From Acidobacteriota bacterium (GTDB lineage: Bacteria; Acidobacteriota; Polarisedimenticolia; SMYD01), in the NCBI GenBank assembly GCA_046757965.1, contig JBHHZI010000001.1, forward strand, positions 25,112 through 89,111: a DNA stretch of 64,000 nucleotides, read 5' to 3'. The position numbers and the translations under genes were made by a program. Of the stretch, positions 1 through 58,866 are shown piece by piece. A model generated the notes under the pieces. The model was not told where the DNA came from. It saw only the letters and a list, made by a program, of their open reading frames with translations, and ran no database searches. Within the stretch, counting starts at the first letter, position 1. Each line of letters begins with the position of its first letter.

Positions 1-1173
1 GACCACTACACCGTGGTGGTTCTGGGCTGCCTCACGTGACCGCCTTTTCTGGGTAACGTCCCCGGTCTGGAGACGGTCGAGAGAGATTACGCCCCGAAGG
101 GTGTGCAGTTCTTCTACATCTACAAGGCCCTGGCCCATCCCGAGTACAACGACTACGTGACGCCGTTCACGCTCGATGAACGCCTGATGCATGTGCACGA
201 GGCGAAGCGAACACTCGGCTCGAAGATCCCGTGGCTCTGCGACGGCATGTCCAACGACGTGAAGCATTCACTCGGCAATGCCCCCAATGCCGAGTTCGTC
301 GTGGGACCGGATGGCCGGATCGCGCGCCGGCGACTGTGGAGCAACCCCTCGGAACTGCGCAAGGATCTCGAGGCCCTGGTCGGTAAGGTCGAACATCCCA
401 CGCGCGTGGAAGACCTCGATATGCCCGCTCCTCCCCCCCGGGAGGGTGTGGCCACCGGCATCGTACCCGGCGTCGAGGTGCCCGGCCGGATGCGCGCCCT
501 GAAGATCGAGCCGGTCATCAAGGACGACGGCGACCCGTTCTATGTGAAGCTGCGCGCCGAGGCGGATGAATCGTTCCTCGAGAAGGGCACCGGCAAGCTG
601 TTCCTGGGCTTCCGTCTCGATCCCCTCTACCACGTCCACTGGAACAACCGGGCCGACCCGCTCGAGTTCACGGTCAAGGCGGCCAGCAAGGTGACCGTCT
701 CACCCAGCCAGGGTCGGGCGCCCGTGGTGGAGGCGGCAGCCGACGCGGACCCACGGGAGTTCCTGATCGACGTCAGCGCCGACGAGCGGGACCGGCCCCT
801 CGATCTGAGCGTCCGGTATTTCGCCTGTGACGACGCCAATACCTTCTGTGTCCCGGTCACCCAGAACTACCGGATCGATCTCGAGACGGATCCCGACGGT
901 GGAGCCGTGATGTCCCGGCTGGGCGGTGGGGGAGCTCGCAGCCGCGAGGAACTGATCGCCCGCATCAAGGAGTGGGATGCCGACGGTGACGGGAAGATCG
1001 TCGCGACGGAGGTCCCGGGACCGATGCGAGGGCGGTTCGATTCCATGGACGCCAACAGCGATGGTGCTCTCGACGGCGACGAGATCGGAGCGATGGCGGA
1101 TCGGATGCTCAAGATGATGGGAGGTCGCCGAGGGCGACCCCGGCCGACCGCCGCCGCCTCGGGCACCCCGTGA
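1..1173 (+). CDS. Thioredoxin-fold (redoxin/AhpC-TSA/TlpA-like) protein with C-terminal EF-hand pair, 5'-partial. The frame is open from nt 1 through an in-frame TGA at 37-39, giving a candidate selenocysteine in a C-L-T-U motif.
   Basis: Frame 1 reads DHYTVVVLGCLT-TGA-PPFLGNVPGLETVERDYAPKGVQFFYIY. The residues after the TGA match the post-CxxC region of TlpA/ResA/Prx (GVxhhhh strand, then IPWLCD ... AEFVVGPDGRIARR = PttfliDpdGkI motif). The ORF track only begins at GTG 103, which would leave a redoxin fold without an active site. Codons 1-36 have high GC3 in the same frame. C-terminal DADGDGKI and DANSDGALDGDE are EF-hand loops. Confidence 0.5.
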
Positions 1174-1471
1174 TCCCCGCGGGACGCCCAGCGTGGAACG
1201 CCCGTTCTTCGACCACTATCTCCGTGGCGGTGACGACCCGGGCTTGCCCGAGGCCCTGGTCTTCGAGACCGGGGCAGATGACTTCATCACGGTGACCAAC
1301 CGCGTGCATCGGTCCCGGCGTCACCCCGGTCATCTCGAGGTGGGAGTGCTGCCCGGTCCCTGATCTATTCCGGCCACCACGCGCCGGCTGCAGGCGACGG
1401 CATCTTCTGGTCGAACCGGGTGCCACGCGGCCCCGGACGACGCGCCGCCGGATGCCATCACCCGGCCGGTA

Positions 1472-1957
1472 TCATCTCGCCACCGCCAGACACTCGATCT
1501 CCACCCGCGCGCCCAGGACCAGGCCATCGATCGCCACGGCCGCCCGGGCGGGCGGATTGGTGGGAAAGAAGGTCACATACACGTCGTTCATCGCCGACCA
1601 CTCGTCGATGTCGGCCAGGAACACGGTGCACCGGACGATGCGGGCCATGGAGGACCCGTGTCGCGTCACGACGTCGCGGATGTTCGCCAGCGCCTGACGC
1701 GTCTCCCCCTGGATACCACCCGCTGCCAACTCGCGCGTCCCCGGCAGCGTGCCGATCTTGCCGGACAGATACAGCATCCGTCCGACGCGCACCGCCTCCG
1801 AGAGTCGCGGCGAGGGACCGGAAGGACCGGGCAGGTACTCGATCTCCTCCGGCGTGCCGGCCGCCCGGATCCCGCCGGCCATCGCACCCACGAGCAGCAA
1901 GGTGCCCGCCGTGCTCTTCCCGATCTTTACCCACCGTGGTCGTGCTCTTCCCGTCAT
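1472..1957 (-). CDS. RidA/YjgF/UK114 family reactive-intermediate deaminase; may carry an N-terminal signal peptide
   Basis: ORF product contains the hallmark RidA core LYLSGKIG ... CTVFLADIDEW ... AAR, and the length is typical; TGA stop. Confidence 0.85.
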   Translation of the reverse strand: MTGRARPRWVKIGKSTAGTLLLVGAMAGGIRAAGTPEEIEYLPGPSGPSPRLSEAVRVGRMLYLSGKIGTLPGTRELAAGGIQGETRQALANIRDVVTRHGSSMARIVRCTVFLADIDEWSAMNDVYVTFFPTNPPARAAVAIDGLVLGARVEIECLAVAR

Positions 1958-2161
1958 CGTGTGCCTCCCGTCTCATCGAGTCCAGCAGATGGTGTGGCTC
2001 ATCTCGGTGCAGCTTCCAGCCGCCTCGCACAAGACGGTAGGAGATCTCGGGTCGCGTTGACACAGGGAGCTGGTCAAGGCCACTTCCCCATGCCTGTTCG
2101 ACGGCCGGCCATGCCGGTCGCCGGACGCCCGCGCCCCGCACGACCCGACCTCACATGCGAA

Positions 2162-2188
2162 GAGGCCGGCGCTGTCGGCGCCGGCCTC
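2162..2188 (-). terminator. GC-rich perfect inverted repeat (11-bp stem, 5-nt loop); possible terminator downstream of the small sigma-54-dependent ORF
   Basis: The sequence is gaggccggcgc-tgtcg-gcgccggcctc, a perfect palindromic stem. On the minus strand it is followed by cTCTTCg. It sits between convergent/divergent minus-strand genes. There is no strong U-tract. Confidence 0.3.
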
Positions 2189-2281
2189 TCCGTCCCCGAT
2201 CCGGACCACCCTGGTGACCGCGTTCGTTGCCGGTCCGGATCTGTTTCTCAGGGAACGACGTGGATGTTGCCCTTCTCGGTC

Positions 2282-2425
2282 TTATCGGCAGCCGGTGCAG
2301 ATGAGCGTGTGTCCGCGACTTCCGCTGTCGGTGCTTCGCAGACCTTCGATCCGATTGGAACTCCAGAGAGAGGTGGATGCAACGAACATGGCCAACGCGA
2401 TCAGACTTGCTCTCAGAAAACTCAT
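2282..2425 (-). CDS. Small hypothetical peptide (47 aa, MSFLRASLIALAMFVASTSLWSSNRIEGLRSTDSGSRGHTLICTGCR) with a hydrophobic N-terminus and a C-terminal CxxC
   Basis: Strong SD aaaaGGAGtcgagATG. A candidate sigma-54 promoter lies 45-55 nt upstream. TAA stop. Codon usage and GC are lower than in neighbouring genes (agt, ttt, aga codons). The peptide is too short for homology inference. Confidence 0.4.
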   Translation of the reverse strand: MSFLRASLIALAMFVASTSLWSSNRIEGLRSTDSGSRGHTLICTGCR

Positions 2426-2479
2426 CTCGACTCCTTTTCTGCGCCCCCGAGGCGCTCTCGACATTCACCCCGGGACTAC

Positions 2480-2495
2480 GCAAGGGGAATGCCAG
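2480..2495 (-). promoter_or_regulatory. Candidate sigma-54 (RpoN) -24/-12 promoter
   Basis: The minus strand reads TGGCATTCCCCTTGCG, with GG and GC in exact -24/-12 spacing (TGGCAC-N5-TTGC consensus). It lies about 50 nt upstream of the small ORF at 2282-2425 and directly downstream of the sigma-54 activator gene. Confidence 0.5.
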
Positions 2496-2743
2496 CGTGG
2501 AGGGATCGCCGTCCTGCCGGGCGGTGGCCGGCCGGAAGACGCGCGGATCCGGTCGCTATCGCCCAGGAACGGCTGTTGACGATGTTCGAGGGTCATCCGA
2601 CCCGAGAGCGCAGACCGAGGGGGTCGGCATCGGCGCGGGAAGCGATCCGGATATCTGCAGGTACCGATCGGACACGCGGGCAACCGAAAGAGCGACCCCG
2701 GAGGAGACGTGGAGCGCGACGGGCACCCGGGAGGGCGCCATGC

Positions 2744-4588
2744 TCACCGGGCGGTGCCTGACCTGCCGCCGCGCCGGGCGCTTCCCCGCGATCCCCGCAG
2801 GTTCTCGGCCCAGCGGAGTGTGTTCCCAAGGTGCCGGCGGTCATCCGCCAGCAGGTCGGCGATCGATTCGCGGGAGATCGACAGCAGGCGCTTCACGAGG
2901 CTGGCGGCGTCCGACGTGCGCATCGATCGGGTACCGAGAAGCATCCGGACGGCCGTCGTCGGTTTCGGCTCGCCCGACGCGATGGCACTCGCGGCGAGAG
3001 CGGCGTCGAGCTGGCAGGCGATGAAGCGCGCATAGGCCGCCTGCACCTCGCCGAGCCGCCCGAGCCAGCGGTCCTTGTCGGCGATCTCGAATCTCACGGC
3101 ACCCAGGGCGGCGAGGGCATCGTCGAGGGTCGCGCCGGGCTCCGTCACTTCCTCCGGACGCTCCTGCCCCATGCCGTCGACACTCCCCTCGCCGACGGCG
3201 GACACCTCGACCGGCCGGTCGCCTGCGGGCAGGTTGCCCGCTCTCTCCGCGGGACGCCCCCGCGTCGCGCTCGTCGCGGTCGGCGGCAGGACCGACGGGA
3301 GGTGTTCCGGCGACAGGTAGCGAATACCGCGATAGCTGGACACTGCCTGGAGAACGGCGTGTTCGAGTTCCCGCACGTTGCCGGGCCAGGGGCTGGACAT
3401 CATCAATTCCATCGCCTCCGGGGAGATCTCACGCCGTTCAGCCGCGAGTCGTCTCTCGTGCCGGCGGACCAGATACTCCACGAGCAACGGGATGTCCTCC
3501 CGGCGGTCGCGGAGCGGGGGCAGCACCACAGGATTGGCGGCATTCGCGCGCTGCAGGAGGTCGCTGCGGAACCCACGCTCGAGCATCTCGAATCGATTCG
3601 TCGCCATCACCACCTGCAGGTCGAGCTTGCGCACGCTTCCATCGCCGATGCGCTGCGCTTCGCGGGTCCCGGTGTCCAGGAGTCGCATCAGCCGGTCCTG
3701 CACGCCGGCGGGAATATCACCGAATTCGTCGAAGAACAGGGTGCCCCCGTCGGCCATCTCCGCGGCGCCCGGGCGATCCCGGGCAGCTCCGGTGAAGGCC
3801 CCCCGCACATATCCGAACAGGTCCGCCGAGAACATGTCCTCGTTGGCATGGACAAACAGCTTGCAGAATTTGCCGGAACGCCTGGATGACCTGTGGATAT
3901 AGGTCGCGAGCAGTTCCTTCCCCGTGCCGGTCTCCCCGAGCACCAGGATGTTCGCGTTGCCGATGCGGGCGGCACGTCGGGCGGATCTCAAGGCGGCCAG
4001 CAGGGGCACGGAATGTCCGACGATGCCCTCGCCGACGAGATAGGCGTTCTCGAGGAGGAGGTCCCGCAACCGTTTCCGGTCGAGTTGCTGCTTGTCGACG
4101 AATGCGAACACACCATGGCGCGCGAAGCGACTCTCGATGTGCTCGCGCTCCATGGCCGACAGGATCACGACCGGAATCTCGGCCAGATCCGGCTCCTTGC
4201 GGATGCGGTCGAGGATCGTCAGTCCGAAGTAGTGTGCGGGGTCCCGGTCCGTCGACTCTCCCTGGGCATCCCCTGTGAGAGGATCGACCGGACCGGTCTG
4301 GAAGTGCATGTCCAGAAGCACCATGGCCCAGCGCGGCCACTTCTGCCAGCCGGCGCGAAGAAGCTCGATGACCCCGTCGACATCGTTGTCGATGCGCCGA
4401 TCGGTCTGGACCTGACCGCTGTGGAGGATCGCTTCCGCCACGGGTTGACCGACCTCCGCCGTCGCCACGTCTCCCGTCACATCCCGGATCCCGAGCCGCG
4501 CGCAGAACATCTCCCGATCCCGATTGCGGGCCCACGATCCGCGCCCGTAGACATCGTCGATGATCAGCAGTCTCGGCAGGTCGCTCAT
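2744..4588 (-). CDS. Sigma-54-dependent transcriptional activator (bacterial enhancer-binding protein, bEBP) with an N-terminal receiver domain
   Basis: Shows LLIIDD and a VLLDMHF receiver aspartate, Walker A GETGTGKE, the GAFTGA sigma-54 contact motif, and WPGNVRELE. The long C-terminal region has no obvious Fis-type HTH. TGA stop. Confidence 0.9.
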   Translation of the reverse strand: MSDLPRLLIIDDVYGRGSWARNRDREMFCARLGIRDVTGDVATAEVGQPVAEAILHSGQVQTDRRIDNDVDGVIELLRAGWQKWPRWAMVLLDMHFQTGPVDPLTGDAQGESTDRDPAHYFGLTILDRIRKEPDLAEIPVVILSAMEREHIESRFARHGVFAFVDKQQLDRKRLRDLLLENAYLVGEGIVGHSVPLLAALRSARRAARIGNANILVLGETGTGKELLATYIHRSSRRSGKFCKLFVHANEDMFSADLFGYVRGAFTGAARDRPGAAEMADGGTLFFDEFGDIPAGVQDRLMRLLDTGTREAQRIGDGSVRKLDLQVVMATNRFEMLERGFRSDLLQRANAANPVVLPPLRDRREDIPLLVEYLVRRHERRLAAERREISPEAMELMMSSPWPGNVRELEHAVLQAVSSYRGIRYLSPEHLPSVLPPTATSATRGRPAERAGNLPAGDRPVEVSAVGEGSVDGMGQERPEEVTEPGATLDDALAALGAVRFEIADKDRWLGRLGEVQAAYARFIACQLDAALAASAIASGEPKPTTAVRMLLGTRSMRTSDAASLVKRLLSISRESIADLLADDRRHLGNTLRWAENLRGSRGSARRGGRSGTAR

Positions 4589-5175
4589 ACGATCAGGATC
4601 TCGTGGGGCATCCTCGAGAGGCTGTCTCCGAGGTGGTGGCAGCCTCGCCTCAGGTTCTCGAACCGGTGCGCAAGCTGCCTCAGGCGCGAGACGTCGTCTG
4701 CCGGTTCCGCCGCCAGGCGCTCCTTGATGCGCCAGTAGGCCTCATCGGCCTCGATCAATGCCTGCGCCGCCGCGTCCACGCGCTCCGAGATCGGGTAGCG
4801 AGCCGCCCACAGATCATGGAGCAGGGTTCCCAGCCAGTGCCGGGTGGTCCGGGCCAGAAGACAGAGCGGCGCCTGGGTCACGAAGCACCGGGGCGACATC
4901 TCCTGGACGAACGACCAGATGAGATCACCGGCCTGTCTCGACCGCGCCTCCCACGCAGGGAAGTCGTCTCGAACGAACTCCAGGAGCCGTTCCGGATCCG
5001 ATGACGGCACGGCCAGCAGCGCCAGAAAGCCGTCCAGCCGGTTGAGATACCGGTTCTTCAGCCAGTCATGGTTGAACCGGCTGCGCCGTTGCTGCCAGTC
5101 CTCCATCGGGCTCGGGTCCACGACGACCTCGTCTACCTGACGCCGGAGCCGGTGGCGACTCCGGACGCCTGGCAT
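4585..5175 (-). CDS. Hypothetical protein; its stop overlaps the start of the sigma-54 activator (ATGA)
   Basis: ORF with a 4-nt ATGA overlap onto the downstream bEBP gene. No recognizable motif. The true start may be the internal Met (about 5106). Confidence 0.5.
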   Translation of the reverse strand: MPGVRSRHRLRRQVDEVVVDPSPMEDWQQRRSRFNHDWLKNRYLNRLDGFLALLAVPSSDPERLLEFVRDDFPAWEARSRQAGDLIWSFVQEMSPRCFVTQAPLCLLARTTRHWLGTLLHDLWAARYPISERVDAAAQALIEADEAYWRIKERLAAEPADDVSRLRQLAHRFENLRRGCHHLGDSLSRMPHEILIV

Positions 5176-5307
5176 GCATCCTGCTCCTGTTACAGGTCAA
5201 CCGTCGAAGGCACCGCGATACCCGCTCGGGCGGGCCGTCGCGACCTTCCCGGGTGCAACCTCGCAACGCATGGTATCAAGATTGATACCGGAAGTGGAGA
5301 ATCTGTC

Positions 5308-6519
5308 ATGTTCGTGCAACGTGGTTTTCAACAGGATTCCCGGACACACCATGAGGAGATCTATCTCGACAATGCCGCGACGACCGCGCTGGACCCCCGG
5401 GTCCTGGAGGCGATGGCGCCCTATCTGGGCAGCAGGTGCGGCGATCCATCGGGCGCTCACGCCCCCGGACGGCGTGCCCGGCAGGTCGTCGAGCGGGGAC
5501 GGGTGACCGTCGCCAGGCATCTTCATTGCGCCACCGCGGAGGTCGTGTTCACCAGCGGCGGCACTGAATCGAACAACCTGGCACTGATCGGCAGCGCGCG
5601 CCTGCTCAAGCGCCGCGGCCGTCATCTGGTCGTGTCCTCCATCGAACATCCATCCGTGCTCCGGGCAGCCGCCTACCTCGAGACCCAGGGCTTCTCCGTG
5701 ACGTGCGCCGACGCCGACAGCCAGGGCCGCGTGGGTGTGGACGCGGTGCGACACGCCCTCCGCCCGGACACCGTGCTGGTCTCGGTGATGCTCGCCAGCC
5801 ACGTCACCGGCATCGTGCAACCGGTACCGGAGATCGCCCGCCTGGTCCACGCGCACGAGGCGCTCCTTCATACCGATGCCGTCCAGGCGCTGGGCAAGAC
5901 GACGGTCGACGTCCGGGCGCTCGGTGCGGATCTGGTCTCCCTCTCCGCCCACAAGATGCACGGTCCGCAGGGCATCGGCGGCCTGTATGTGCGAGCAGGT
6001 GCCGTCATCCAGCCGCGCCAGTTCGGTGACGGTCAGGAGCGCGGGCTGCGAGGCGGGACGGAGAACATCGCAGGCATCCTCGGCTTCGTGCGGGCGCTGG
6101 ATCTCTGCGGTCCCGGCCGGGATCGTGACCGCATGGGCCGACTGCGGGACATGCTCCAGGACGAGATCACGTCCCGGATCGATGCCGTCATCGTTCATGG
6201 CAGGGAGGTCGCACGGCTGTCATCGATCCTCGCGGTGACCATCCCGGACGTGAACGGTGAGGCGCTCCATCGCGGCCTGGCGGCGCGCGGTCTGGCGGTC
6301 TCATCCGGCGAACCAGGGGCGGCCGGCCGGCGGGCCATGGTGCGGGCCGTCGGCTCCCATCCCGAACCCATCGCCAGCACCATCCGTTTCTCCCTGTCAC
6401 GACGGACCACCCCCGAGGAGATCCATGCCGCGGCGGCCATCGTGGGCGACGTCGTCGCGCGCCTCCATCGTCCAGCAACCGCATCTCCGGCGCGCAACGT
6501 CGTGATCGGATCCGGCTGA
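5308..6519 (+). CDS. Cysteine desulfurase (IscS/NifS family, class V aminotransferase)
   Basis: N-terminal IYLDNAATT, TSGGTESNN, and SAHKMHGPQGIGGLY (PLP-lysine region). Start chosen at ATG 5308 with GGAG 6 nt upstream. The ORF track extends further 5', but that stretch is non-homologous. Confidence 0.9.
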   Translation: MFVQRGFQQDSRTHHEEIYLDNAATTALDPRVLEAMAPYLGSRCGDPSGAHAPGRRARQVVERGRVTVARHLHCATAEVVFTSGGTESNNLALIGSARLLKRRGRHLVVSSIEHPSVLRAAAYLETQGFSVTCADADSQGRVGVDAVRHALRPDTVLVSVMLASHVTGIVQPVPEIARLVHAHEALLHTDAVQALGKTTVDVRALGADLVSLSAHKMHGPQGIGGLYVRAGAVIQPRQFGDGQERGLRGGTENIAGILGFVRALDLCGPGRDRDRMGRLRDMLQDEITSRIDAVIVHGREVARLSSILAVTIPDVNGEALHRGLAARGLAVSSGEPGAAGRRAMVRAVGSHPEPIASTIRFSLSRRTTPEEIHAAAAIVGDVVARLHRPATASPARNVVIGSG

Positions 6520-6579
6520 GACACCGCGGGCGGTCACGCTGTCTCACGATTTCGTTGAAAACGGATCGGATCGAGGAGT

Positions 6580-8589
6580 ATGATGGGCGGTATCTCCTGC
6601 CTGTACTCCGGCGGGGCGGTCCGGACCGCCGCCGGCGTCCAGCAAAGGCCGGGCGTGACCGTGACCAGAGGTTTTCGCAAGAACATCGAGGATCTGCTCG
6701 AGGAATGGCGTCCGCCCGGCGGCATGGCCGCCTTGCTTCTCGAGCATCCAACCGCGGGAGTCTACTTCCCGCTGGCGGTCCAGCCAGCCGCCGAGAACAC
6801 CGACTATTACTCGATGCCGGTGCGATTTCGCGATGGCTGCGACACCAGCCTGCAGCTCGATGAGACTTCTTCGCCGGAACGGCTCGCGTTTCGCGGCCGG
6901 CTCGAGTTGACACGGCCCGATCTGCGATTGCCGGTGAGGCAGGAACTGGTGCCGCTTCACCAGGATGGGGACGGCGGGCTGAAGGTTCTCCTCCTGCGCT
7001 CGTCACCGGGGACGATGCCGGACATGGAGCCGCGAAACCTGAACACCCTGAAGAATCTGGTTCCCCTGACCTGTCTGAACTGGGTGGAACAGGCGCAGAG
7101 ATCGATCGAGATCCCGGAGTTCTCGAGCTTCGAGGAGCTCGCGCAGGACCTGGTCAAGCGGCTCAGCGACGTGGAGCAGGACCCCCCCTATTTCCCCATC
7201 CTGCATGCCGAGGTGACGCCGGACGCTGAGGCTCTCGGCGCCCGTTTCTCCAGCGCCAACCTGCTGAGCTGGAACTGTTACCTCCTCGACGATCAGCGGA
7301 GCATGCCGGCCTACATCCCGCAGATGCCCACCGTGATGGGGGAAAAGAAGATTCACGAGTGGTGGGAGGATGTCACACGGCGGGCCGACGCCTCGAGCAT
7401 GACCGAATCGATCCGGAAGGCCGCCGCCAAGACCATCGATCATGTCCGGCTGATCGGCCGATGCGACCATGATGGCGTGGCGTGGTGGGCGTTTGCCCGC
7501 CACAACAAGGATCGCCGGGAGATGACAGGGCTGCTGTGTGAATGGTCCGAGGGGGAATCGATCCTCTCGGCCGCCGAGGCCTGGAGGGACGTCGACCCGA
7601 TCACGCCCGGTGACCTCGTGCGCCGGGCGCTGGCCGTGCGATCGGATGAAGATGACGTCCTGGTGACGATGTGGCTGGTCAGCGACACGGGCCAGGGCAT
7701 CAATATCGGGTTCAAGGCGGGCAACCGCATCGAGGTTCTCGATCACGCCGAGATGGGCGGCGCGGATCAGGTGGAGATCACGGAGTTCGTTCCGTTCTGT
7801 GTGCGGCTGTCCCCGTTGCCGCTGGTCGACAGGCAGGTCATCGAGGACCGGGTCCGGCCGGTCCTTGCCAGCGCAGCGCGCGCGGCACGACGCATCGACG
7901 GGTCGGGCCTGATCGAGAGCGCCTTCGAGCCGGTTCGCAGGGAGCTGCACGAGGGCTCATGGCATGACGCCTACCCGGGCAGTGGCCTGTTCGTGGACCG
8001 ATTTCATGACGTGGCCGACTGGACCGACGAGGACGTGAAGCGATGCCATGAACGGATGGTCGTGCTTCTCGACGGATTGCTGACCGCCTGGACCGGCAAC
8101 GCGAACCCGCTGAGCCGCAACCGTTGCGAGACACGCTTCGACTGCTGGCACATTCGCGCCCTCAAGGCTCTGGCTCATGACCGTCTGCACTCCAGCCTGG
8201 TGATGGCGGTTCTCTCCGGACCGGTGTCGGACGCGTCGTACCTGCTGGCCGACCGGGAGATATGCCCCGGCGGCAACGTACGCTGGTCAGACCTCCTGGC
8301 GGCGCTGACGACGGTCACGACCGAGGGCAATCGCTTCCGGCTGAAGCAATGGCACCACGGCGCAAGATGCACGCTGATCCTGCGGTTCTCCGGCCAGCTC
8401 AACCCCCAGGGTGTCACCGCCGCACTGACCGGAGAGGGCGCGCAAGAACGACAGGGCAGCTTCACGCGTGCCTGTGAAACCCTGCGTCGCGCGGCGCGAC
8501 GGTTCGGCGTGGAGATCGATCACGACGGAGACGAAGACGAACGATGGAGCCTCGTCGTCGTTCTGGCCGAGAGCGAGCTTGCCTGCTAA
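6580..8589 (+). CDS. Large uncharacterized protein (669 aa) immediately downstream of the cysteine desulfurase
   Basis: Long ORF with high GC3. GAGGAG lies just upstream of ATGATG. No motif I can name. TAA stop. Confidence 0.6.
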   Translation: MMGGISCLYSGGAVRTAAGVQQRPGVTVTRGFRKNIEDLLEEWRPPGGMAALLLEHPTAGVYFPLAVQPAAENTDYYSMPVRFRDGCDTSLQLDETSSPERLAFRGRLELTRPDLRLPVRQELVPLHQDGDGGLKVLLLRSSPGTMPDMEPRNLNTLKNLVPLTCLNWVEQAQRSIEIPEFSSFEELAQDLVKRLSDVEQDPPYFPILHAEVTPDAEALGARFSSANLLSWNCYLLDDQRSMPAYIPQMPTVMGEKKIHEWWEDVTRRADASSMTESIRKAAAKTIDHVRLIGRCDHDGVAWWAFARHNKDRREMTGLLCEWSEGESILSAAEAWRDVDPITPGDLVRRALAVRSDEDDVLVTMWLVSDTGQGINIGFKAGNRIEVLDHAEMGGADQVEITEFVPFCVRLSPLPLVDRQVIEDRVRPVLASAARAARRIDGSGLIESAFEPVRRELHEGSWHDAYPGSGLFVDRFHDVADWTDEDVKRCHERMVVLLDGLLTAWTGNANPLSRNRCETRFDCWHIRALKALAHDRLHSSLVMAVLSGPVSDASYLLADREICPGGNVRWSDLLAALTTVTTEGNRFRLKQWHHGARCTLILRFSGQLNPQGVTAALTGEGAQERQGSFTRACETLRRAARRFGVEIDHDGDEDERWSLVVVLAESELAC

Positions 8590-8670
8590 GAGTCGAACGC
8601 ACGGGCCATGCCGCGGCTCCGGCCACGGCGGCGCGGTCGCCGGACCATGCGCTCGCGGGACCGCCACGGG

Positions 8671-9501
8671 ATGAGTGCCTCGAGCTGGTCGCTTTACCTG
8701 TTCGACCCCGAGGACCGGGCCTACCGCAGGCCCTGGGCGTCGATGCTGCCGGCTCCGTTTCACGAGGTCACCATCGTGGATTCTTTCTTCCAGAGGAGCG
8801 GGGGCAGGGCTCGCGACGGTGTCGTCGTCGTCCACGCCTCGCGCCTGCCTGACGAGAAGCGACGCGGCGATCTGGTCAGCAACGCCAGACAGATGAATCT
8901 TCACCTGGTTCTCATCTCTGGTGGGCATCAGTCAGAGCCGGCGCGTGACAACTGGGTCTATTTCCGCCGCCGCCCGGTTCGCATGCGCGACATCGACGAG
9001 GAGTTTGTCGACTGCTTCGCCCGCTTCTGGCACCATCTTCGGTCCACCGATGAGTTCCGCTTCGAGCTTCTCGAACCGGCGCGAGACATGGTCCGGGTGC
9101 TGGTCGTGCTCTGCCAGGGCTATCTTCTCGCCCACGTGCGGCGCGACCCGCTGCGCCTCGAACTGCCGGGGGAGTCTCACGCGGTGTGTGACCAGGGGCT
9201 CGCAGCGTTGAACCGTCTCGGGCTCGACACGGCCCTGGCGACCCCCCCGGCGCCGGATAGCGTCTCCGAGCTGCTCGAGGAGGAGATGGGAGAGCTCGTG
9301 GACTCCGCCGACTGGTGGTCACCGGTCGATGTGCCGCGGCTTCGCCACGAGCTGGCGACTCTCGACATGAACGATGTGAACGTCCGGCGTCTTGTCGCCG
9401 GAATCGACGCGGAACTCTCCGTTGCTCCGGCCGTGGTGGTCGCGGCGTACTGCGTGCTCGAACAACACCTGCGCGCGAGTCTCCGGCCGCAGAGGGCCTG
9501 A
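8671..9501 (+). CDS. Uncharacterized protein (about 276 aa) in the same apparent operon
   Basis: ORF in the same orientation 80 nt after the preceding gene. Start ambiguous between 8608, 8647 and 8671. No recognizable motif. Confidence 0.5.
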   Translation: MSASSWSLYLFDPEDRAYRRPWASMLPAPFHEVTIVDSFFQRSGGRARDGVVVVHASRLPDEKRRGDLVSNARQMNLHLVLISGGHQSEPARDNWVYFRRRPVRMRDIDEEFVDCFARFWHHLRSTDEFRFELLEPARDMVRVLVVLCQGYLLAHVRRDPLRLELPGESHAVCDQGLAALNRLGLDTALATPPAPDSVSELLEEEMGELVDSADWWSPVDVPRLRHELATLDMNDVNVRRLVAGIDAELSVAPAVVVAAYCVLEQHLRASLRPQRA

Positions 9502-9777
9502 TGCCGACGGCGAGCGACCGGGCCGCCGGCCTGCCGGTCCGCCAGCATCTGGTGCCCGTTCCGTCAGCCCGGGAGCGGCACAGGCGGAGATCCCGGCGGC
9601 GGAATTATCGGCGGACCACTCCGGTTCTTCAGGATGAGAACGACCGTTCGCCATGCCACCGTTCGCTCCCCTGCCGCACCGCGCGATGCGGCCGCCTCGA
9701 CCGGCGCCGGACGGGCCAGAGGGGGACATCCGACGGCGGTGGAGCTGGCCAGGACAGGCCGATGAGCCGATGACCTG

Positions 9778-12700
9778 ATGAGAAGACGGACTCGCTTGGC
9801 CCTCATCGCCGGAGGGATCCTGACAGGGCTCGTGCTGGCCCTGGCCCTCGTGCTGCCTTCCTTCATCGATGTCAACCGATACCGTGGCGAGTTCGAGACC
9901 CGGATCGGCGCCATGCTCGGCCGGGATGTGCATCTCGGACAGATGCAGCTGCGATTCCTGCCTGATGTCGTCATCGACGTGCGCGACCTTGGCATCGGCG
10001 CCCTGCCGTCGGAGGGCGAGGGCGACCTGCTCACCGCGGCTCGCCTGCGTCTGGGCGTGCGGCTGCTGCCGCTACTTCACGACAAGGTCGAGATCACATC
10101 CGTGCGACTGGAGAAGCCCGTACTCATCGTGGACCGGGACGCCAGTGGCGCGTTCAACATCGAGCGACTGATCGCGGCCGGCCCGGAACAGGAATCTCCC
10201 GACAGCGCGGCCGGTGACACGACGAACTTCGCGGTCGATTCTCTGTACATCACCGGCGGCACACTCACCATCAGAGACTCGGCACTGGCGCCGGGCCGTA
10301 CCCTCACCCTGGGTCTCGAACAGATCGATGCCCAGGTGAACCATCTGGCTCCTGATCGCCCCGTGGAGGTGAACCTGACCACGCGGCTGGCCGGGCAGCC
10401 TGACGCACAGGTCGAGATCCAGGGGTCTGCCGGACCGCTTCAGCCTGATGCGGGCCACCCGTTCACCGCCGATCTGCGTGTGGAGCTGTCGGGGCTCGGT
10501 CTGGAGCCTCTCGGCCCCTGGTGTGAGGCGCTCACCGGCTTCTCCCTCCCCCCGGGAACGCTGGGATTGATCGGTGCCGCCCGGTACGCGGGACCGGACG
10601 ACGGTGACCTGTCGCTGGAGTCACTCGACATCGATCTGGGCCGGTCGCACCTGGCGGCCACCGGAACCGTTCACCTGGCCTCGGGTTCCATCGAGGCCGG
10701 CGTGACCGCCCGCGAGATGGAGATCGACCCCGATGAGGTCCGGGATCTTCTGGGCGGTGTCGGAGTGGCGTGGCCCCTGCCGCCGGATGTCGTCGGTAAG
10801 GCGCCGGTGACCGGAAGCGGGACCGTCCGGTTGCAACTGGACCGATCGGGACCGCGGCTTGCGAGCCTGTCGGCGAAACACGTCAAGATTGCCGGCGGCG
10901 AGATCAACCTGCGCCGCCACGCCGATGGCGCATGGAATATCGCGTCCCTGTGGGAAGCGGACGGGGTCAGTCCCAAGGCGACCACACCTCCTCGCCTGGA
11001 GATCGAAGGCCTTCATGTCAAGGACACGCGCCTGCGAATCCGCGACGATCTGACACCGGGCGCCCACCCGGTCGTGATCACCGACCTCGACATCACACTC
11101 GACTCGTTGCCCGTGGCGGCACCGGCACGGGTGAGGCTCAGCGCGGCCGTGGACCCGGGCGGGGGCAACCCGGCGCCCATCGGGGCGGAAGGCACCATCG
11201 GGCCGGTGGGCGACGACGGGGTCGTGCCGGTGAACCTGACCGTCCGGGCCAGCCACTTTCCTGTCGCGCCACTCGGGCCGTACGCGGAACCCTACCTGGC
11301 GGTGGAGACAACCGCCGGCATGGTGAACCTGGAGGCCAAGGTCAAGGGACGGGTGCCGGAAGCGTTCGACAGTTCCGGTACCATCGACCTTGACCAGCTC
11401 GTCGTGACGCTCGCCGGGCCGACAGGGTCGAGCAGGCCCACCCACCTCGACCTGGGCATCGCGTTCGATCTCACCGCCACCCACGGCGCAGACGACGTGA
11501 CCTTCCGTGACCTGACGGTGACGACAGGGGATGAGTCCCTCGGCATGTCAGGTCGCCTAGACAGATCCGGCGGGACGATGCGAGTCGATGCCACCCTGCG
11601 ACCAAGTACCATCAGCGCCGACCGGATCGCGGAGCTACTGGCCATGTTCGACTACGATCCCGGCTTCTCTTTTTCTTCCACCCGGCCGGTGCAGCTGGAG
11701 GGACGCCTGACCGGACCGCTGAGCGGCCCCACCGCACCGACCGTCACGGGGCGGCTCCGCCTCGACGGGTTCACGTTTCGCCACCCGGTGATGACAGCTC
11801 CCATGGAGAAGGTCCGCGCCACGATCCAGGTGGACGGAGAGCAGGTCAGCATCGAGGATTTCTCCGGCGCCATCGGTGGCAGCGATCTGTCCGGGAATGC
11901 CACGCTCTCGGGATTTGACGCACCCGATGTCCGGTTCGACCTGCACTCGCGACACGCCGATTTCTGGGAATTGATGTCGTTTGTCAGCACCGATACGACG
12001 ACCCCGGCAGCACCCCAGGCCCGTGGCACCGACGATGCCAGCGCTCTCCTGGACGCCGTCACGGCGCAGGGCAAGCTGACCATCGACGACGGGTCCTTCC
12101 AGGCCCTGGCGTTCTCCAGCTTGTCCGCCGGTCTGGGTCTGCGTGGCCAGGTCATCACGCTCGATCCCCTGGAGATGGACCTGTACGGCGGACACTTCAC
12201 GGGCAACGCTCGCCTGGACGAGACGGTGACGCCGCCCCGCTTCCGGATCGTGACCACCGCCACCGATGTCGATGTCTCACCGCTCCTGGCCGACAACCTC
12301 GACCTCGGCGACCTGCTGTCGGGACGTTTCTCGGGTCAGGTGAGTGTTCGCGGGGCCGGGACCGACTACGACACGATCGTCTCGGGTCTGACAGGAGACG
12401 GCAAGGTCGAGATCCGGGATGGTCGCGTCGGTCAGCTCGATGTTCTCGGCATTCTCTCGAAGGCCTCCGGCGTGTTCGGCGAGCAGACTCTGCAGAAACT
12501 CTCTCGCAAGATCGAGAAGGAGGGCACGGAGTTCAGCCGCATGACAGGGAGCCTGGAGCTGTCCAGCGGAACGCTGCGCAGCAACGACCTCCGACTGGAC
12601 TCGCCGGACGTGACGATCCGGGGCAAGACATCCGTCGATCTCCTGGGTGCAACCATGAACGGCAAGTTCAAGGTCCTGCTGTCTGCGGACCTCAGCCGGT

Positions 12701-13452
12701 CGATGCGGCAGGAGAAGAGCCGGGCCGCCGAGGTGTTCTGGGATTCGCACGAGGAGCGGGTGAATGTGCCGCTGGCACTCTCAGGACCGTTCGCCTCGCC
12801 GTCTCCGAACATCGACTGGAAGACGGCCACCCACAATCTCGCCCGCACCAAGGGGCGCGAGGCGCTGAAGAGCCGTCTCGGAAAGTTCGGGGCTCTCCTG
12901 GATCGAGACAAGGGAGCCAGTTCCGCACCGCAAGCGTCCAGCCCCCAGGCAAGTTCAGGAACCCCCACCGCCGGAATCACCGCGGGCGACAGTTCCCGGT
13001 CGGCGCTGACCGGTGCCGGTCCGCCGTCGGCGCCACGACCCTCTTCAGCCCAGGCAGCCACATCCGGCTCAGAAGCCCAGACCACTCCCCTCCCCGGCAG
13101 CGGGCCCACCCCATCAACTGCCCGGACACCGGCCGGCACGCCTCCTGCCATGACCATCGAGATCACACGCACCCACTGGAGCGGCAACTTCCTGCTCAAA
13201 TCCCTGGTCGTGGAGGGGCGAGCCGTCGGTGCCACCATCGATCATCTCAGCGCCCAGGTCACCGACGCGTCGGGACGCACCATCCAGACCTTTGACCGGG
13301 TCGAGGCCGGCCCACCGGCGCCCTCGCGATCCTGGTCCTTCAAGGTCTCCGGCAAGAAACTGGTCGGCGGGCACAGCCCCTTCACCGTGCGCATCGTCGC
13401 CCATGACACGGCCGGCACCACCACCGAGATCACCACCCAGGTTCGCCGCTGA
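9778..13452 (+). CDS. AsmA family outer-membrane biogenesis protein, with an N-terminal TM anchor and a long low-complexity C-terminal extension
   Basis: N-terminus MRRRTRLALIAGGILTGLVLALALVLPSFIDVNRYRGEFETRIGAMLGRDVHLGQMQLRF is the characteristic AsmA N-domain. Repetitive beta-rich body. An SAPQASSPQASSG low-complexity linker. Confidence 0.85.
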   Translation: MRRRTRLALIAGGILTGLVLALALVLPSFIDVNRYRGEFETRIGAMLGRDVHLGQMQLRFLPDVVIDVRDLGIGALPSEGEGDLLTAARLRLGVRLLPLLHDKVEITSVRLEKPVLIVDRDASGAFNIERLIAAGPEQESPDSAAGDTTNFAVDSLYITGGTLTIRDSALAPGRTLTLGLEQIDAQVNHLAPDRPVEVNLTTRLAGQPDAQVEIQGSAGPLQPDAGHPFTADLRVELSGLGLEPLGPWCEALTGFSLPPGTLGLIGAARYAGPDDGDLSLESLDIDLGRSHLAATGTVHLASGSIEAGVTAREMEIDPDEVRDLLGGVGVAWPLPPDVVGKAPVTGSGTVRLQLDRSGPRLASLSAKHVKIAGGEINLRRHADGAWNIASLWEADGVSPKATTPPRLEIEGLHVKDTRLRIRDDLTPGAHPVVITDLDITLDSLPVAAPARVRLSAAVDPGGGNPAPIGAEGTIGPVGDDGVVPVNLTVRASHFPVAPLGPYAEPYLAVETTAGMVNLEAKVKGRVPEAFDSSGTIDLDQLVVTLAGPTGSSRPTHLDLGIAFDLTATHGADDVTFRDLTVTTGDESLGMSGRLDRSGGTMRVDATLRPSTISADRIAELLAMFDYDPGFSFSSTRPVQLEGRLTGPLSGPTAPTVTGRLRLDGFTFRHPVMTAPMEKVRATIQVDGEQVSIEDFSGAIGGSDLSGNATLSGFDAPDVRFDLHSRHADFWELMSFVSTDTTTPAAPQARGTDDASALLDAVTAQGKLTIDDGSFQALAFSSLSAGLGLRGQVITLDPLEMDLYGGHFTGNARLDETVTPPRFRIVTTATDVDVSPLLADNLDLGDLLSGRFSGQVSVRGAGTDYDTIVSGLTGDGKVEIRDGRVGQLDVLGILSKASGVFGEQTLQKLSRKIEKEGTEFSRMTGSLELSSGTLRSNDLRLDSPDVTIRGKTSVDLLGATMNGKFKVLLSADLSRSMRQEKSRAAEVFWDSHEERVNVPLALSGPFASPSPNIDWKTATHNLARTKGREALKSRLGKFGALLDRDKGASSAPQASSPQASSGTPTAGITAGDSSRSALTGAGPPSAPRPSSAQAATSGSEAQTTPLPGSGPTPSTARTPAGTPPAMTIEITRTHWSGNFLLKSLVVEGRAVGATIDHLSAQVTDASGRTIQTFDRVEAGPPAPSRSWSFKVSGKKLVGGHSPFTVRIVAHDTAGTTTEITTQVRR

Positions 13453-13567: not shown

Positions 13568-15496
13568 ATGACCCTCACTCCGGATCTCATCATGGCGCTG
13601 GCAGCGCTGGCCATCGTGGCCCTGGCGGCCGACAAGGTCGGGGCCTTCTTCGGCCGGCTGCGACTCCCTCTGATCACCGGTTTTCTGTTCACCGGTGTCC
13701 TGGCCGGGCCACACGGTCTCGATCTGATCCGCAGCTCCGCGATCGGTCATCTCCATGTCGTCAGCGAGACGACCATCGCCTTCATCGCGTTCGCCGCCGG
13801 CTCGGAACTGGATCTCGGCGACCTCAAGCACCGGTTGAGAAGCATCCGCTGGGTGTCCACGGGGCTGGTCGTGGTCACCTTCAGCAGCACGGTTGTCGCG
13901 ACGCTGCTGGTAGCGGACGCTCTGCCGTTTGCCCGCGCGCTGCCGGCCACCGAGCGGTGGGCCGTGGCACTCCTCGCCGGCGCCGTTCTCGTGGCGCGTT
14001 CTCCGTCGTCCGCCATCGCGGTGGTGAACGAGCTGCGGGCGCGGGGCCCGTTCACCGGCATGGTGCTGGGCGTCACCGTCGTCATGGACGCGGTGGTCAT
14101 CGTCCTCTTCGCCGCCAGCTCGTCAATGGCCGACGCCTTGCTCGCCGGACAGGCGTTCGATCTCCAGGTCCCCCTGCTTGTGCTGGGCGAGATCGTGGTC
14201 TCTCTCGGGCTGGGGTTCCTGCTCGGCAAGGTCCTGCCGTCGCTGGTGGGCGGGTCGCGCCATCAGACGGTTCGTGCGGGTCTCCTTCTGGCCACGGGTC
14301 TTCTGAACTTTTCCGGGGCCGATCTGGTCCGGACCCTCAGTCGCGCTCGACTGTCGGTGGACATCCTCATCGAACCGTTGCTGGTCTGCATGGTGGCGGC
14401 GTTCGTGTCCACGAACTTCACATCGCACACCGGCAGGGTCCGGGAGGTCGTCGAGTCCGCCGGACCGACCGTGTAGGTGGTCTTCTTCACGCTGGCAGGG
14501 GCATCACTGGATATCGGCGTTCTGGCAGGAACCTGGCAGGTCGCCCTGATCCTGTTCGGCGTCCGGCTCGCATCCATCGTCGTGGGGTCGGCGGTGGGTG
14601 GCATGCTGGCCGGGGACCCCGCCCGCTTCAATCGCGTCGGCTGGATGAGCTTCGTCACCCAGGCGGGCATCGGGCTTGGACTGGCGGAGGAGATCGCTGG
14701 CGAGTTCCCGACCTGGGGCGGCTCCCTCTCGGCCGTCATCGTCGCCATCATCGTCATGAACCAGGTTGTCGGGCCTCCCCTGTTCAAGTGGGCCCTGCAC
14801 CTGGTCGGAGAGGCCCGCTCTGTCGACGACGTCGCCCGCGACCGCGACCTCTCCCGGGCGGTGATCGTGGGGTGGGACGCGCAGGCCATCGCCGTGGCCC
14901 GGCAGCTCACCGTCCACGGCTGGGAGGTCGCTGTCGCCTCTCGCAAGGTCAACGCGGAAGAGGCAGTGCCAGGTTCTCCGGCCACACTCACACCGCTGTC
15001 GGACCTGACCACCGAGGGTCTGCGCGCTGCCGGCGCGGACCGTGCAGACACCCTCGTGGGTCTGCTCACGGACGAGGAAAACACGCACCTCGTGGAGATG
15101 GCGCGGGCCTCGTTCCCGTCGGCTCACCTGGTCGTGCAGATCCATGATCGAGACCGGGCCGCGACCCTGGCAGGTGATGGTGTGGTGGTCATCGACCCGG
15201 AGACGGCCATCGTGAATCTACTGGACCACCTGGTGCGCACGCCGGCAGCGACCTCGCTCCTGCTCGGTGAGGACCCGGGGCAGGACGTCACGGATCTGCA
15301 GGTCGGCAACGTCGCGCTCCGGGGCGTGGCGGTGCGCGATCTTCATCTTCCGCTGGACATCCGGGTGCTCTCGATCCAGCGCCGCGGCGCCCGCCTCATT
15401 TCCCATGGACACACCCGGCTCGCCGTCGGAGATCAGGTCACCGTGGTCGGGAGTGCGGCGAGTCTGCGCGAGGTGGCGTTCCTGTTCGAGTCCTGA
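13568..15496 (+). CDS. Monovalent cation:proton antiporter (CPA2/Kef-type) with RCK_N and RCK_C (TrkA) domains; the single reading frame is interrupted by an in-frame TAG at 14474-14476
   Basis: The two ORF-track pieces 13568..14476 and 14477..15496 are in the same frame, separated only by TAG. The sequence is continuous across it, PTV-TAG-VVFFTLAGASLDIG, which matches the conserved Kef motif LLLGLFFIAVGMSIDFG. The C-terminal half has RCK domains. Confidence 0.75.
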
Positions 15497-57806: not shown

Positions 57807-58199
57807 TCAGGATACCAGTTGGGACGATGTTGCCGCATTGTTCCACGCGATCTCCATCCCCGCGCGGTGAACAGAGCGACCGAAGAGGCCGCGAATCAGT
57901 CGTTCCGAGCGAATCGGTCGCAGATCCGGGCGTGGCGCCCAGAATCGAGAGATGATCGGCTTGATGGTCGTTGGCCCGTCATCGCCGCCACCATTGCCGG
58001 GAACCACGCAGTTGCCACTGAGATTGCAACGACCGAAAAGCTTCGAACTGTGACACGAACTGGCGCCACTACCCTCCGTGGCGGAGCAAACGCGACTTGC
58101 CGAACAGGTCACGCAAGCGCGGGGTGCCGCAGGGATACCGGCGGCGAGCATCACAACCGCTGAGAGACCGAGAACAAACGTGAGACGTTTCGAGTTCAT
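57807..58199 (-). CDS. Small secreted cysteine-rich protein (130 aa; signal peptide, then 6 Cys within about 35 aa)
   Basis: GGAAGGAG SD before ATG. Signal peptide MNSKRLTFVLGLSAVVMLAAGIPAAP. CVTCSASRVCS ... CHSSKLFGRCNLSGNC. Confidence 0.5.
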   Translation of the reverse strand: MNSKRLTFVLGLSAVVMLAAGIPAAPRACVTCSASRVCSATEGSGASSCHSSKLFGRCNLSGNCVVPGNGGGDDGPTTIKPIISRFWAPRPDLRPIRSERLIRGLFGRSVHRAGMEIAWNNAATSSQLVS

Positions 58200-58866
58200 G
58201 AAGCTCCTTCCCTTTCCGCACAGCCCGATGTCGAGATGAGACGCCAGGCGTGGGCGGTGAATGGCGCGGAGACGGCGCTGGTCACGCTCTTTCTCCGCGT
58301 ACGGTTGATGAAATATCGCCGGTGGTAGGCGACGGTTTCCTTGGAACGCAGCATGCCGATGAGACAACTCCGGACAGGCGTGGTCAGCCAACCATCCAGG
58401 AGCCAGGGCCACAGGTGGCGATACGACGCTGGCGGAGACGTTCATCATTTCACCGGTTTCTTCCCCACGACAGGTTCGACCCGGAACCTTGCCGGCAGAG
58501 ATTGGTGGTCACGGCGGAGCAAGAGGCAAATTGTGTGCCAGCTCTCCGCTTTCCCCCGGATCCATGCAGACCACCATCGAACAGCGTACCGGAGCGCAGG
58601 GAAACGGCGACGGCGGCCAAGAAAGTCGGATCCATGCACCGATTCAACCAGCCTGGAGGTCGTCTCATTCGCAGATAGAGACGGGCCGCTGCGCGCGCTC
58701 TAGGACGACTGTTCCATCTCGCACAGTGGCTGTTCTGTGTTGTCCTGCAGTGGGACATCCGGCTCTCGAGACCACGGTCCGGCGTTCATGTCCACCCGTG
58801 CCGCCCGACCTCGCCCCGCGGCATGCCGTGATACACTGCCCAAACAACGAACGAGGAGACCTGCCT

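Follow-up and report, generated by a model that had tools for sequence, protein, structure and literature searches.

The subject of this analysis is a 64-kb stretch of DNA from an Acidobacteriota metagenome-assembled genome (the window, throughout) and, within it, a group of genes around an apparent cysteine desulfurase gene. The GC content of the stretch is uniformly high, about 65–70%, and that of the gene group is the same as that of its flanks. Three open reading frames (ORFs) of 403, 669 and 276 amino acids (aa) follow one another on the plus strand, and NCBI annotates the identical three products in this genome. The gap between the desulfurase-like gene and the 669-aa gene measures 60 nt to ATG 6580 and 141 nt to an alternative start, GTG 6661; the next gap, to ATG 8671 of the 276-aa gene, is 81 nt (the longest ORF of that gene opens at 8608). 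The initial annotation of this DNA took the three genes for one apparent operon, made up of an IscS/NifS-like desulfurase and two large proteins of no assignable motif, and proposed an uncharacterized sulfur-transfer or thio-modification pathway. The genes are indeed adjacent and in the same orientation, but the sensor genes, as we call the second and third, have their own predicted promoter, so this is not a simple single operon, and the conserved unit reaches past 5308–9501 to the minus-strand region 2282–5175 (Table 1). In our reading, to which we assign a probability of roughly 55%, the region 2282–9501 is one conserved sigma-54-dependent signalling cassette and not a sulfur-relay operon.

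Table 1. Genes and predicted regulatory elements of the cassette (positions in the window)
Feature	Position	Strand	Remarks
Small ORF, 47 aa, MSFLRASLIALAMFVASTSLWSSNRIEGLRSTDSGSRGHTLICTGCR	2282..2425	-	Likely target of the activator; Shine–Dalgarno sequence and P2 upstream
P2, predicted sigma-54 promoter, TGGCATTCCCCTTGC	2480..2494	-	Just downstream of the activator gene; position conserved
Sigma-54 enhancer-binding protein (activator), 614 aa	2744..4588	-	Receiver, AAA+ and C-terminal helical region; Pfam
~180-aa helical protein	4585..5175	-	Longest ORF 196 aa; start maybe GTG 5121 or ATG 5106
P1, predicted sigma-54 promoter, TGGCATGCATCCTGC	5170..5184	+	Faces the desulfurase-like and sensor genes; position conserved
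Perfect palindrome, GGTATCAAGATTGATACC	5272..5289	+	In the leader downstream of P1; conserved offset
NifS/IscS-like pyridoxal phosphate (PLP) protein, 403 aa, without catalytic Cys loop	5308..6519	+	Aminotran_5; motif comparison
Predicted sigma-70-like promoter, TTGAAA-18-TATGAT	6555..6584	+	For the sensor genes; equivalents in related loci
Putative sensor protein, 642 aa (annotated as 669 aa from ATG 6580)	6661..8589	+	GAF-like input, DHp/CA-like transmitter
Putative atypical receiver protein, 276 aa	8671..9501	+	Receiver fold, His55 at the phospho-acceptor position, helical C-terminal domain

All cassette proteins, 18 members of the superfamily of the 642-aa protein and X, a protein family encoded at related loci, were searched against the profile libraries of Pfam, NCBIfam and PADLOC. 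Only the NifS-like and AAA+ proteins were matched; the two large proteins stayed without a match in any of the three libraries, in agreement with what had been noted at the outset. The lack of a partner of the IscU, SufE or TusA type was borne out as well, as no flanking gene has a Pfam match to Fe-S scaffold or sulfur-carrier families of that kind. Sequence and profile searches against PDB with the 642-aa protein, the 276-aa protein, the ~180-aa protein and X returned only noise.

The cassette is defined by its synteny. Genes for the sensor, the receiver-like protein, the ~180-aa protein and the activator occur together at every locus that has enough sequence to judge, across the window, six further Acidobacteriota lineages and five distant cluster types. 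In Acidobacteriota the frame consists of a ~180-aa gene overlapping the gene for a ~600-aa activator and, divergently, a ~642-aa gene followed by a 220–290-aa homologue of the 276-aa protein; close relatives keep the sensor at 54–67% identity and the 276-aa protein at 42–51%. The loci compared are the contigs of close sensor homologues plus others found by scanning genomes and metagenomes. What varies is the slot ahead of the sensor gene. It holds a NifS-like gene in the window only, a gene for X, which is unrelated to NifS, in four lineages (L001; L007/L023/L020; L024; L022/L025), and nothing in two (L002; L004/L005). The X proteins of two Acidobacteriota slots match each other at a BLASTP E-value of 3e-25. 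Around the slot, an unbroken aatctgtcacg in L002 corresponds in the window to aatctgtcATG (~5300) and ctgtctcacg (~6535), which bracket the NifS-like gene. These short repeats would fit an insertion or deletion event in the slot.

The product of the first ORF has the class-V aminotransferase fold of NifS-like proteins (Pfam Aminotran_5, 4.7e-73). We compared it with a solved desulfurase (9wep_A, whose loop reads TASGSAC), with four NifS proteins encoded in distant clusters and with eight of the best hits from a database search spanning 5.8 billion proteins. The protein shares with class I desulfurases (NifS and IscS, as well as DndA and SspA) the fold, the PLP lysine (SAHK, aligned with S(A/G)HK of solved desulfurases), the HxDAVQ motif (here HTDAVQ) and the C-terminal RFSLS motif; to NifS-type enzymes it is 40–49% identical. 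It differs from them in the catalytic loop, where it reads VSSGEPGAAGR, with a 3-residue deletion and a Gly aligned to the Cys of SGSAC, a motif present in all compared proteins. Likewise, ASHVTG stands in place of the NNE(I/V/T)G found in all of them. A compensated frameshift was considered and rejected, since no other frame restores either SGSAC or NNE. The protein also falls short of every NCBIfam equivalog cut-off (344 vs 531 bits for NifS, 288 vs 643 for IscS and 300 vs 480 for DndA), and its closest database homologue is only 49% identical. The loop cysteine acts as the nucleophile in class I desulfurases and accepts the sulfur of the substrate cysteine; lacking it, the window protein could neither form a persulfide nor pass one on. 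Thus, the IscS/NifS-like label is right as to fold and cofactor lysine but not as to catalysis: the protein is probably an inactive desulfurase, and most likely a decaying or repurposed PLP protein, for which the annotation "Cysteine desulfurase family protein" would be functionally wrong. With the catalytic Cys lost and no copy of the gene in the closest relatives, nothing at this locus points to a functional sulfur-transfer pathway.

The distant clusters add another side to this picture. Their sensor homologues are found with E-values of 1e-22 to 1e-7 and 19–24% identity, and in four cluster types a NifS gene lies a few genes upstream of the homologues of both large proteins. In L009 the order is NifS, methyltransferase, X, sensor and receiver-like protein, with the ~180-aa and activator genes divergent. 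In L010/L011, from Bremerella (Planctomycetota), it is PLP-decarboxylase-REC, NifS, SSF, X, sensor, receiver-like, ~180-aa and activator. The L012/L013 cluster runs NifS, SSF, methyltransferase, a 44-aa gene, X, sensor, receiver-like, ~180-aa, activator, a 1086-aa gene and Macro, and L016/L017 runs NifS, SSF, X, sensor, receiver-like, ~180-aa, activator and a 1000-aa gene. All four cluster-linked NifS proteins have SGSAC and NNE intact. So the idea of sulfur chemistry finds some footing in these distant clusters, while in near relatives the NifS arrangement is not conserved: four lineages have X, two have nothing and none has NifS. At the head of the Bremerella cluster, L010 114–2582 encodes a pyridoxal-dependent decarboxylase fused to a C-terminal receiver-like domain. 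The 1086-aa (L012) and 1000-aa (L016) terminal proteins are unannotated, and the Macro-domain gene comes next in L012.

Protein X has ~240–340 aa and carries the motifs GHF(M/L)L, LVNDxxF, FSE..LR.R, C-x(1-3)-C-(A/S)-G-E and P-x-E-C; profile and PDB sequence searches detected no homology to any known family. Its genes are found, for example, at L001 9263–9979, L007 4374–5372, L009 5880–6848, L010 5578–6567, L012 7063–8004, L018 7025–7996 and L019 2095–3033. Where present, X is always beside the sensor N-terminal module, and in 6/7 cluster types outside Acidobacteriota it is also beside SSF. The two cysteine motifs are kept by X in L009, L010/L011, L012/L013 and L016/L017. In Acidobacteriota, X has lost most of its cysteines, SSF and the methyltransferase are gone, and NifS occurs only in the window and without its Cys; a tblastn search of the rest of the 64 kb found no X, SSF or methyltransferase gene. 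Judging from these alignments and gene orders, the link of NifS to the cassette is probably ancestral, and the window gene is most likely all that is left of an ancestral metabolic module of NifS, SSF, methyltransferase and X. Its identities, 37–42% to cluster-linked NifS and 45–49% to generic NifS, are compatible both with an orthologous remnant and with a later arrival. The simplest reading is that an ancestral module, combining uptake with NifS, X and methyltransferase chemistry, is regulated or sensed by the cassette and is in the process of being lost in this lineage, with the signalling genes still under constraint.

The second ORF is likely to be shorter than annotated. Homologues begin at the equivalent of GTG 6661, and the annotated ATG 6580 falls inside TATGAT, the -10 hexamer of the predicted sigma-70-like promoter, which favours GTG 6661 as the start and a product of 642 aa instead of the 669 aa first reported. 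The close family is rare (8 proteins, 57–67% identity). In a structural model of the 642-aa protein, what look like tandem GAF domains precede a DHp/CA output similar to that of histidine kinases, a phytochrome-like arrangement: the N-terminal ~360–400 aa form a GAF-like input module and the C-terminal ~220 aa a DHp/CA-like region (a helical hairpin plus an alpha/beta domain). Foldseek searches with this model returned full-length phytochromes as the top matches (E = 1e-6), and further matches comprised a LOV-histidine kinase, bacteriophytochrome cores, isolated GAF domains, ChpT and BCKD kinase. The protein is therefore most likely a phytochrome-shaped sensor, as far as the model can be trusted. 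The likeness to phytochromes and bacteriophytochromes concerns the domain plan only, at the level of fold. Unlike them, the 642-aa protein has no sequence similarity to that family and no evident chromophore site, the window has no bilin-synthesis gene, and the template-modelling (TM) scores are low.

Modularity of the family argues in the same direction. An exhaustive profile search gathered 30 superfamily members, across which only the N-terminal ~360 residues are conserved throughout; the invariant positions are P37, D170, P176, N200, L202, D260, R280, W338 and G350 of the sensor. In short paralogues (546–584 aa) the C-terminal half is swapped for an OmpR/ToxR-like winged helix segment, and all six best PDB matches of the corresponding profile are winged-helix proteins (three of ArlR, E = 0.008–0.01, and three of ToxR, ~0.09). 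These paralogues occupy loci of the composition SSF, 35-aa gene, X and sensor. In L019, the one such locus with downstream sequence, the short paralogue is accompanied by neither a receiver-like nor a ~180-aa partner; the L018 contig stops just after the sensor gene. The genes that do follow in L019 were compared with the 276-aa and ~180-aa proteins, in case they had diverged from them, and are not homologous. Conversely, a 413-aa protein of L014 has only the C-terminal half of the sensor (profile positions 419–640), and its gene is followed by those for a 271-aa protein, a 179-aa protein and the activator. A 730-aa protein of L014 was tested as the lost N-terminal half and rejected. An input module swapped between DNA-binding and kinase-like outputs is the signature of a sensor and not of a sulfur-relay enzyme, and so is a transmitter module that co-varies with three partner proteins. 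The locus offers a tractable case of modular sensor evolution, with one input module that has either a winged helix or a kinase-like transmitter as its output.

The 276-aa protein adopts a (beta/alpha)5 receiver fold, although it has no Pfam Response_reg match. In place of the phospho-acceptor Asp at the end of strand 3 it has a histidine, His55, that is invariant in close and distant homologues. According to the model, this is most likely an atypical receiver. It resembles atypical receivers such as CsgD and VpsT but belongs to none of these families: the invariant His in place of phospho-Asp and the absence of a LuxR-type DNA-binding domain set it apart from CsgD/VpsT and from the kinase-like phosphotransferase ChpT, and the family has its own helical C-terminal domain where CsgD and VpsT have the LuxR-type one. 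For both large proteins, then, the fold comparisons led to signalling folds and not to sulfur families, nor to any well-characterized sequence family. The gene for the ~180-aa protein overlaps the start of the activator gene by 4 nt, and its homologues adjoin the activator in every long-form locus. The alignment has invariant R10, H15, L18, N20, P74, H99 and P169, the first four within the motif R-x4-H-x2-L-x-N, and NHDWLKN in most members; the protein has no Pfam or PDB sequence match.

The activator is the most conventional member of the cassette. Pfam recognizes Sigma54_activat (PF00158, 4.7e-38) and AAA_lid_14 (4e-20), the Walker motifs are intact, and the GAFTGA motif is canonical in the window and the close family. 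In its receiver domain the acidic pair D11 and D12 and the phospho-acceptor D93 are invariant in nine homologues. Distant activators (L009, L010, L012, L016) keep the receiver Asp and Walker motifs, but their GAFTGA is degenerate (GAFTSG, GAFTE, SAFDGA and DAHDHA), so that in these lineages the AAA+ homologues may act without contacting sigma-54.

Matches to the sigma-54 promoter consensus recur at fixed places. P1 is directed towards the slot and lies right next to the start of the ~180-aa gene; it reads TGGCAY-N3-TTCCTGC at the conserved position in L001, L002, L004, L007/L023, L024 and L025. The -24/-12 element of P2 is at the homologous position in L001, L004, L007/L023 and L024. Each site thus keeps its place in five to seven loci, window counted. 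The sigma-70-like TTGAAA-18-TATGAT ahead of the sensor gene has no second match in 8 kb, where 0.5 matches would be expected. Its equivalents are TTGATA-18-TATGAT in L002, TTGCCA-18-TAGGAT in L007 and L024, and TTGCCC followed by TAGGAT in L004; the -10 element is also found in L001, L022 and L025. Within the P1 leader, ~80 nt downstream of the promoter, lies a perfect 7+7 palindrome, GGTATCAAGATTGATACC, which is the only perfect copy in the window and has counterparts at the same offset in L002 (1480–1497), L004 and L007. It might serve as a binding site (operator or enhancer) for the activator or some other regulator, or as an RNA hairpin. The P1 leader RNA folds no better than shuffled sequence (z = -0.6), and Rfam found nothing over window positions 1–12000.

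Downstream of P2, a 47-aa ORF begins with a signal-peptide-like N-terminus and finishes with LICTGCR, a CxxC-x end. Its ATG, preceded by the Shine–Dalgarno (SD) sequence AAAGGAG, is ~55 nt downstream of P2, and a conserved GC hairpin lies between P2 and the SD sequence. Equivalent small ORFs occupy the same place in L001, L004, L007 and L024, ending in FVCVICQ, FRCSSCM, FICTGCN and IICTGCN, which makes five loci with the window. None has a Pfam or NCBIfam match. By its position, the 47-aa ORF is likely a target of the activator. Elsewhere in the window, at 58526–58540 on the minus strand, there is a perfect sigma-54 consensus with 0 mismatches, TGGCACACAATTTGC. Some 330 nt downstream of it is an ORF for what may be a small, secreted and Cys-rich protein, MNSKRLTFVLGLSAVVMLAAG...CVTCSASRVCS... 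(57807–58199), followed by that of a 1132-aa repeat protein. This site may be part of the regulon of the cassette or of a different sigma-54 regulon.

Taken together, these features suggest a regulatory circuit that we regard as slightly better than an even bet. The GAF-like N-terminal half of the 642-aa protein would serve as the input and detect a cytoplasmic cue, and the kinase-like C-terminal half would transmit to the divergently encoded receiver-AAA+ activator. The 276-aa receiver-fold protein and the ~180-aa protein, with its invariant H15 and H99, would assist the transmitter in acting on the activator, whether by a four-step phosphorelay or by stoichiometric protein–protein control in the manner of NifL/NifA. 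Once activated, the AAA+ ring would open P1 and P2. P2 would drive the small secreted CxxC-tailed peptide, and P1 would read the variable slot and then the sensor genes, providing positive feedback on top of their sigma-70-type promoter. The gene content and synteny, the fold similarities, the motif loss and the conservation of promoter positions are direct observations, to which we add, as what we infer, the order of the signalling partners, the identity of the ligand and the firing of the promoters.

Among known systems, the closest parallels are NtrB–NtrC and NifL–NifA, in which, as here, a cytoplasmic sensor with a histidine-kinase-like C-terminus stands beside a sigma-54 activator and the promoters are (in our case, predicted to be) autoregulated. 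As in the NtrC-like case, the activator has a receiver domain with an intact Asp. On the other hand, the input of the cassette comes from a ~360-aa family that is so far unclassified, ATP-binding motifs are not recognizable in the kinase-like domain, and there are two additional obligatory partners, the His-for-Asp receiver-like protein and the ~180-aa helical protein with its R-x4-H-x2-L-x-N motif. A full-text literature search for this gene combination found no relevant description. We view the cassette as an undescribed variant of two-component/bacterial enhancer-binding protein signalling with a decayed metabolic remnant, and not as a member of the NtrB–NtrC, NifL–NifA, phytochrome or atypical-receiver groups that it resembles.

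Several observations weigh against this interpretation. The model of the 642-aa protein is of moderate quality (mean predicted local distance difference test score, pLDDT, 65, from 8 sequences), and the whole-chain TM scores of its Foldseek matches are 0.16–0.18, so that the likeness holds at the level of domains only. Neither the sensor nor the 276-aa protein has a significant GAF, HisKA, HATPase_c or Response_reg profile; for HisKA and HATPase_c the sensor has no match even at E = 10. Its kinase-like domain lacks recognizable N, G1 and G2 ATP-binding motifs (there is no DxGxG/GxGxG), and the sole widely conserved His of the transmitter, H449, within HD[VI] of long-form members, lies outside the modelled first helix. 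The 276-aa protein cannot take phosphate on Asp, which makes a classical phosphorelay no more than one possibility. P1, P2 and the sigma-70-like promoter are predictions from consensus matches, and the sigma-54 pattern is no more frequent in the window than by chance (57 found vs 56 expected); the support for P1 and P2 is therefore their conservation of position. Finally, the window PLP protein may keep a residual role other than that of a desulfurase, and the recurrent linkage of NifS, X and SSF in distant lineages ties some sulfur-related chemistry to the family.

This last point bears on two alternatives. In the one closest to the initial annotation, sulfur mobilized by the desulfurase would pass to the 669-aa and 276-aa proteins, as novel acceptors or thio-modification enzymes encoded in the same operon. 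The intact NifS genes upstream of homologues in four distant cluster types would suit this idea, as would five invariant cysteines of the sensor family (C138, C206, C462, C489 and C495) and the absence of a classical IscU, SufE or TusA partner. We nevertheless find it improbable, given that the persulfide Cys is gone from the window protein, that no close relative has the NifS gene yet both large genes are retained, that the large proteins have GAF/kinase-like and receiver-like folds and always accompany a sigma-54 activator, and that the N-terminal module of the sensor also occurs fused to a DNA-binding domain. A different role for sulfur, unlikely but deserving of attention, would be that ancestral NifS and X, together with the methyltransferase, turned an SSF-imported compound into a sulfur-containing ligand or cofactor for the GAF-like module, and that the window has a stripped version. 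SSF, X and the N-terminal module form the most tightly linked trio, a linkage that extends to the short one-component paralogues; the cysteine motifs of X accompany intact NifS in distant lineages, and in Acidobacteriota X has lost most of its cysteines and the window NifS its own. However, X has no detectable homology to known families, the co-location would equally fit a sensor regulating a catabolic operon, and L002 and L004 retain the cassette with neither NifS nor X. The boldest form of this idea, which is more speculative still, would have the 642-aa family as new, multi-phylum cytoplasmic sensors of phytochrome architecture that bind a sulfur-containing small molecule or cofactor made by a dedicated NifS and X from an SSF import and signal to the activator through an unprecedented relay of His-receiver and His-helical proteins. 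If so, the Acidobacteriota version in the window would represent a lineage that shed the ligand-making enzymes.

The small ORF raises the question whether its CxxC-tailed product is modified by the slot enzymes (NifS or X), as happens to ribosomally synthesized and post-translationally modified peptides (RiPPs), with the large proteins as maturation or export factors. The leader-like N-terminus, the Cys-containing C-terminus, the recurrence at five loci and the predicted sigma-54 co-regulation invite such a proposal, which we consider very improbable: L004 has the peptide gene but an empty slot, the N-terminus of the peptide resembles a Sec signal peptide more than a RiPP leader, Pfam, NCBIfam and PADLOC matched no known RiPP enzyme family, and the distant clusters showed no comparable peptide. 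Least credible of all is the idea of a mobile island or an anti-phage defence locus that has a DndA/SspA-like desulfurase and an RtcR-like AAA+ protein at its core. PADLOC models of DndA (~1e-110) and SspA (~1e-109) do match the desulfurase-like protein, RtcR/PspF-type models match the AAA+ core, and a Macro-domain gene and very large genes without assignment follow some distant clusters. These PADLOC matches reflect generic NifS/AAA+ similarity, though; membership in the Dnd or Ssp phosphorothioation systems is excluded by PADLOC, as the window has no DndB-E, SspB-D or scaffold partner genes, and no other protein of the window or the distant loci has a PADLOC match. The GC content is uniform with the flanks and neither an integrase nor repeat boundaries were seen. 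The defence-island idea was rejected for the missing partner genes and the uniform composition.

If the signalling cassette is as we propose, its interest lies in four co-inherited families, the sensor, the His-for-Asp receiver, the ~180-aa protein and X, none of which has a Pfam, NCBIfam, PADLOC or PDB-sequence match. Together they would define an unstudied mode of sigma-54 activator control present in Acidobacteriota, Planctomycetota (including the cultured Bremerella) and other metagenome lineages. Moreover, the loci form a natural decay series, from intact NifS with X, through X only and Cys-less NifS only, to nothing.

The genes that flank the cassette in the window are not conserved beside it in related loci. 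On one side, 103–1173 encodes a 356-aa protein with a weak DsbD_N-like region and a C-terminal EF-hand; on the other, 9778–13452 encodes a 1224-aa protein of the AsmA/DUF748 family. Beyond the latter, an in-frame TAG at 14474–14476 divides an apparent cation/proton-antiporter-type gene into two parts in one frame (13568–14476 and 14477–15496), which could be a case of a pseudogene, an assembly error or recoding.

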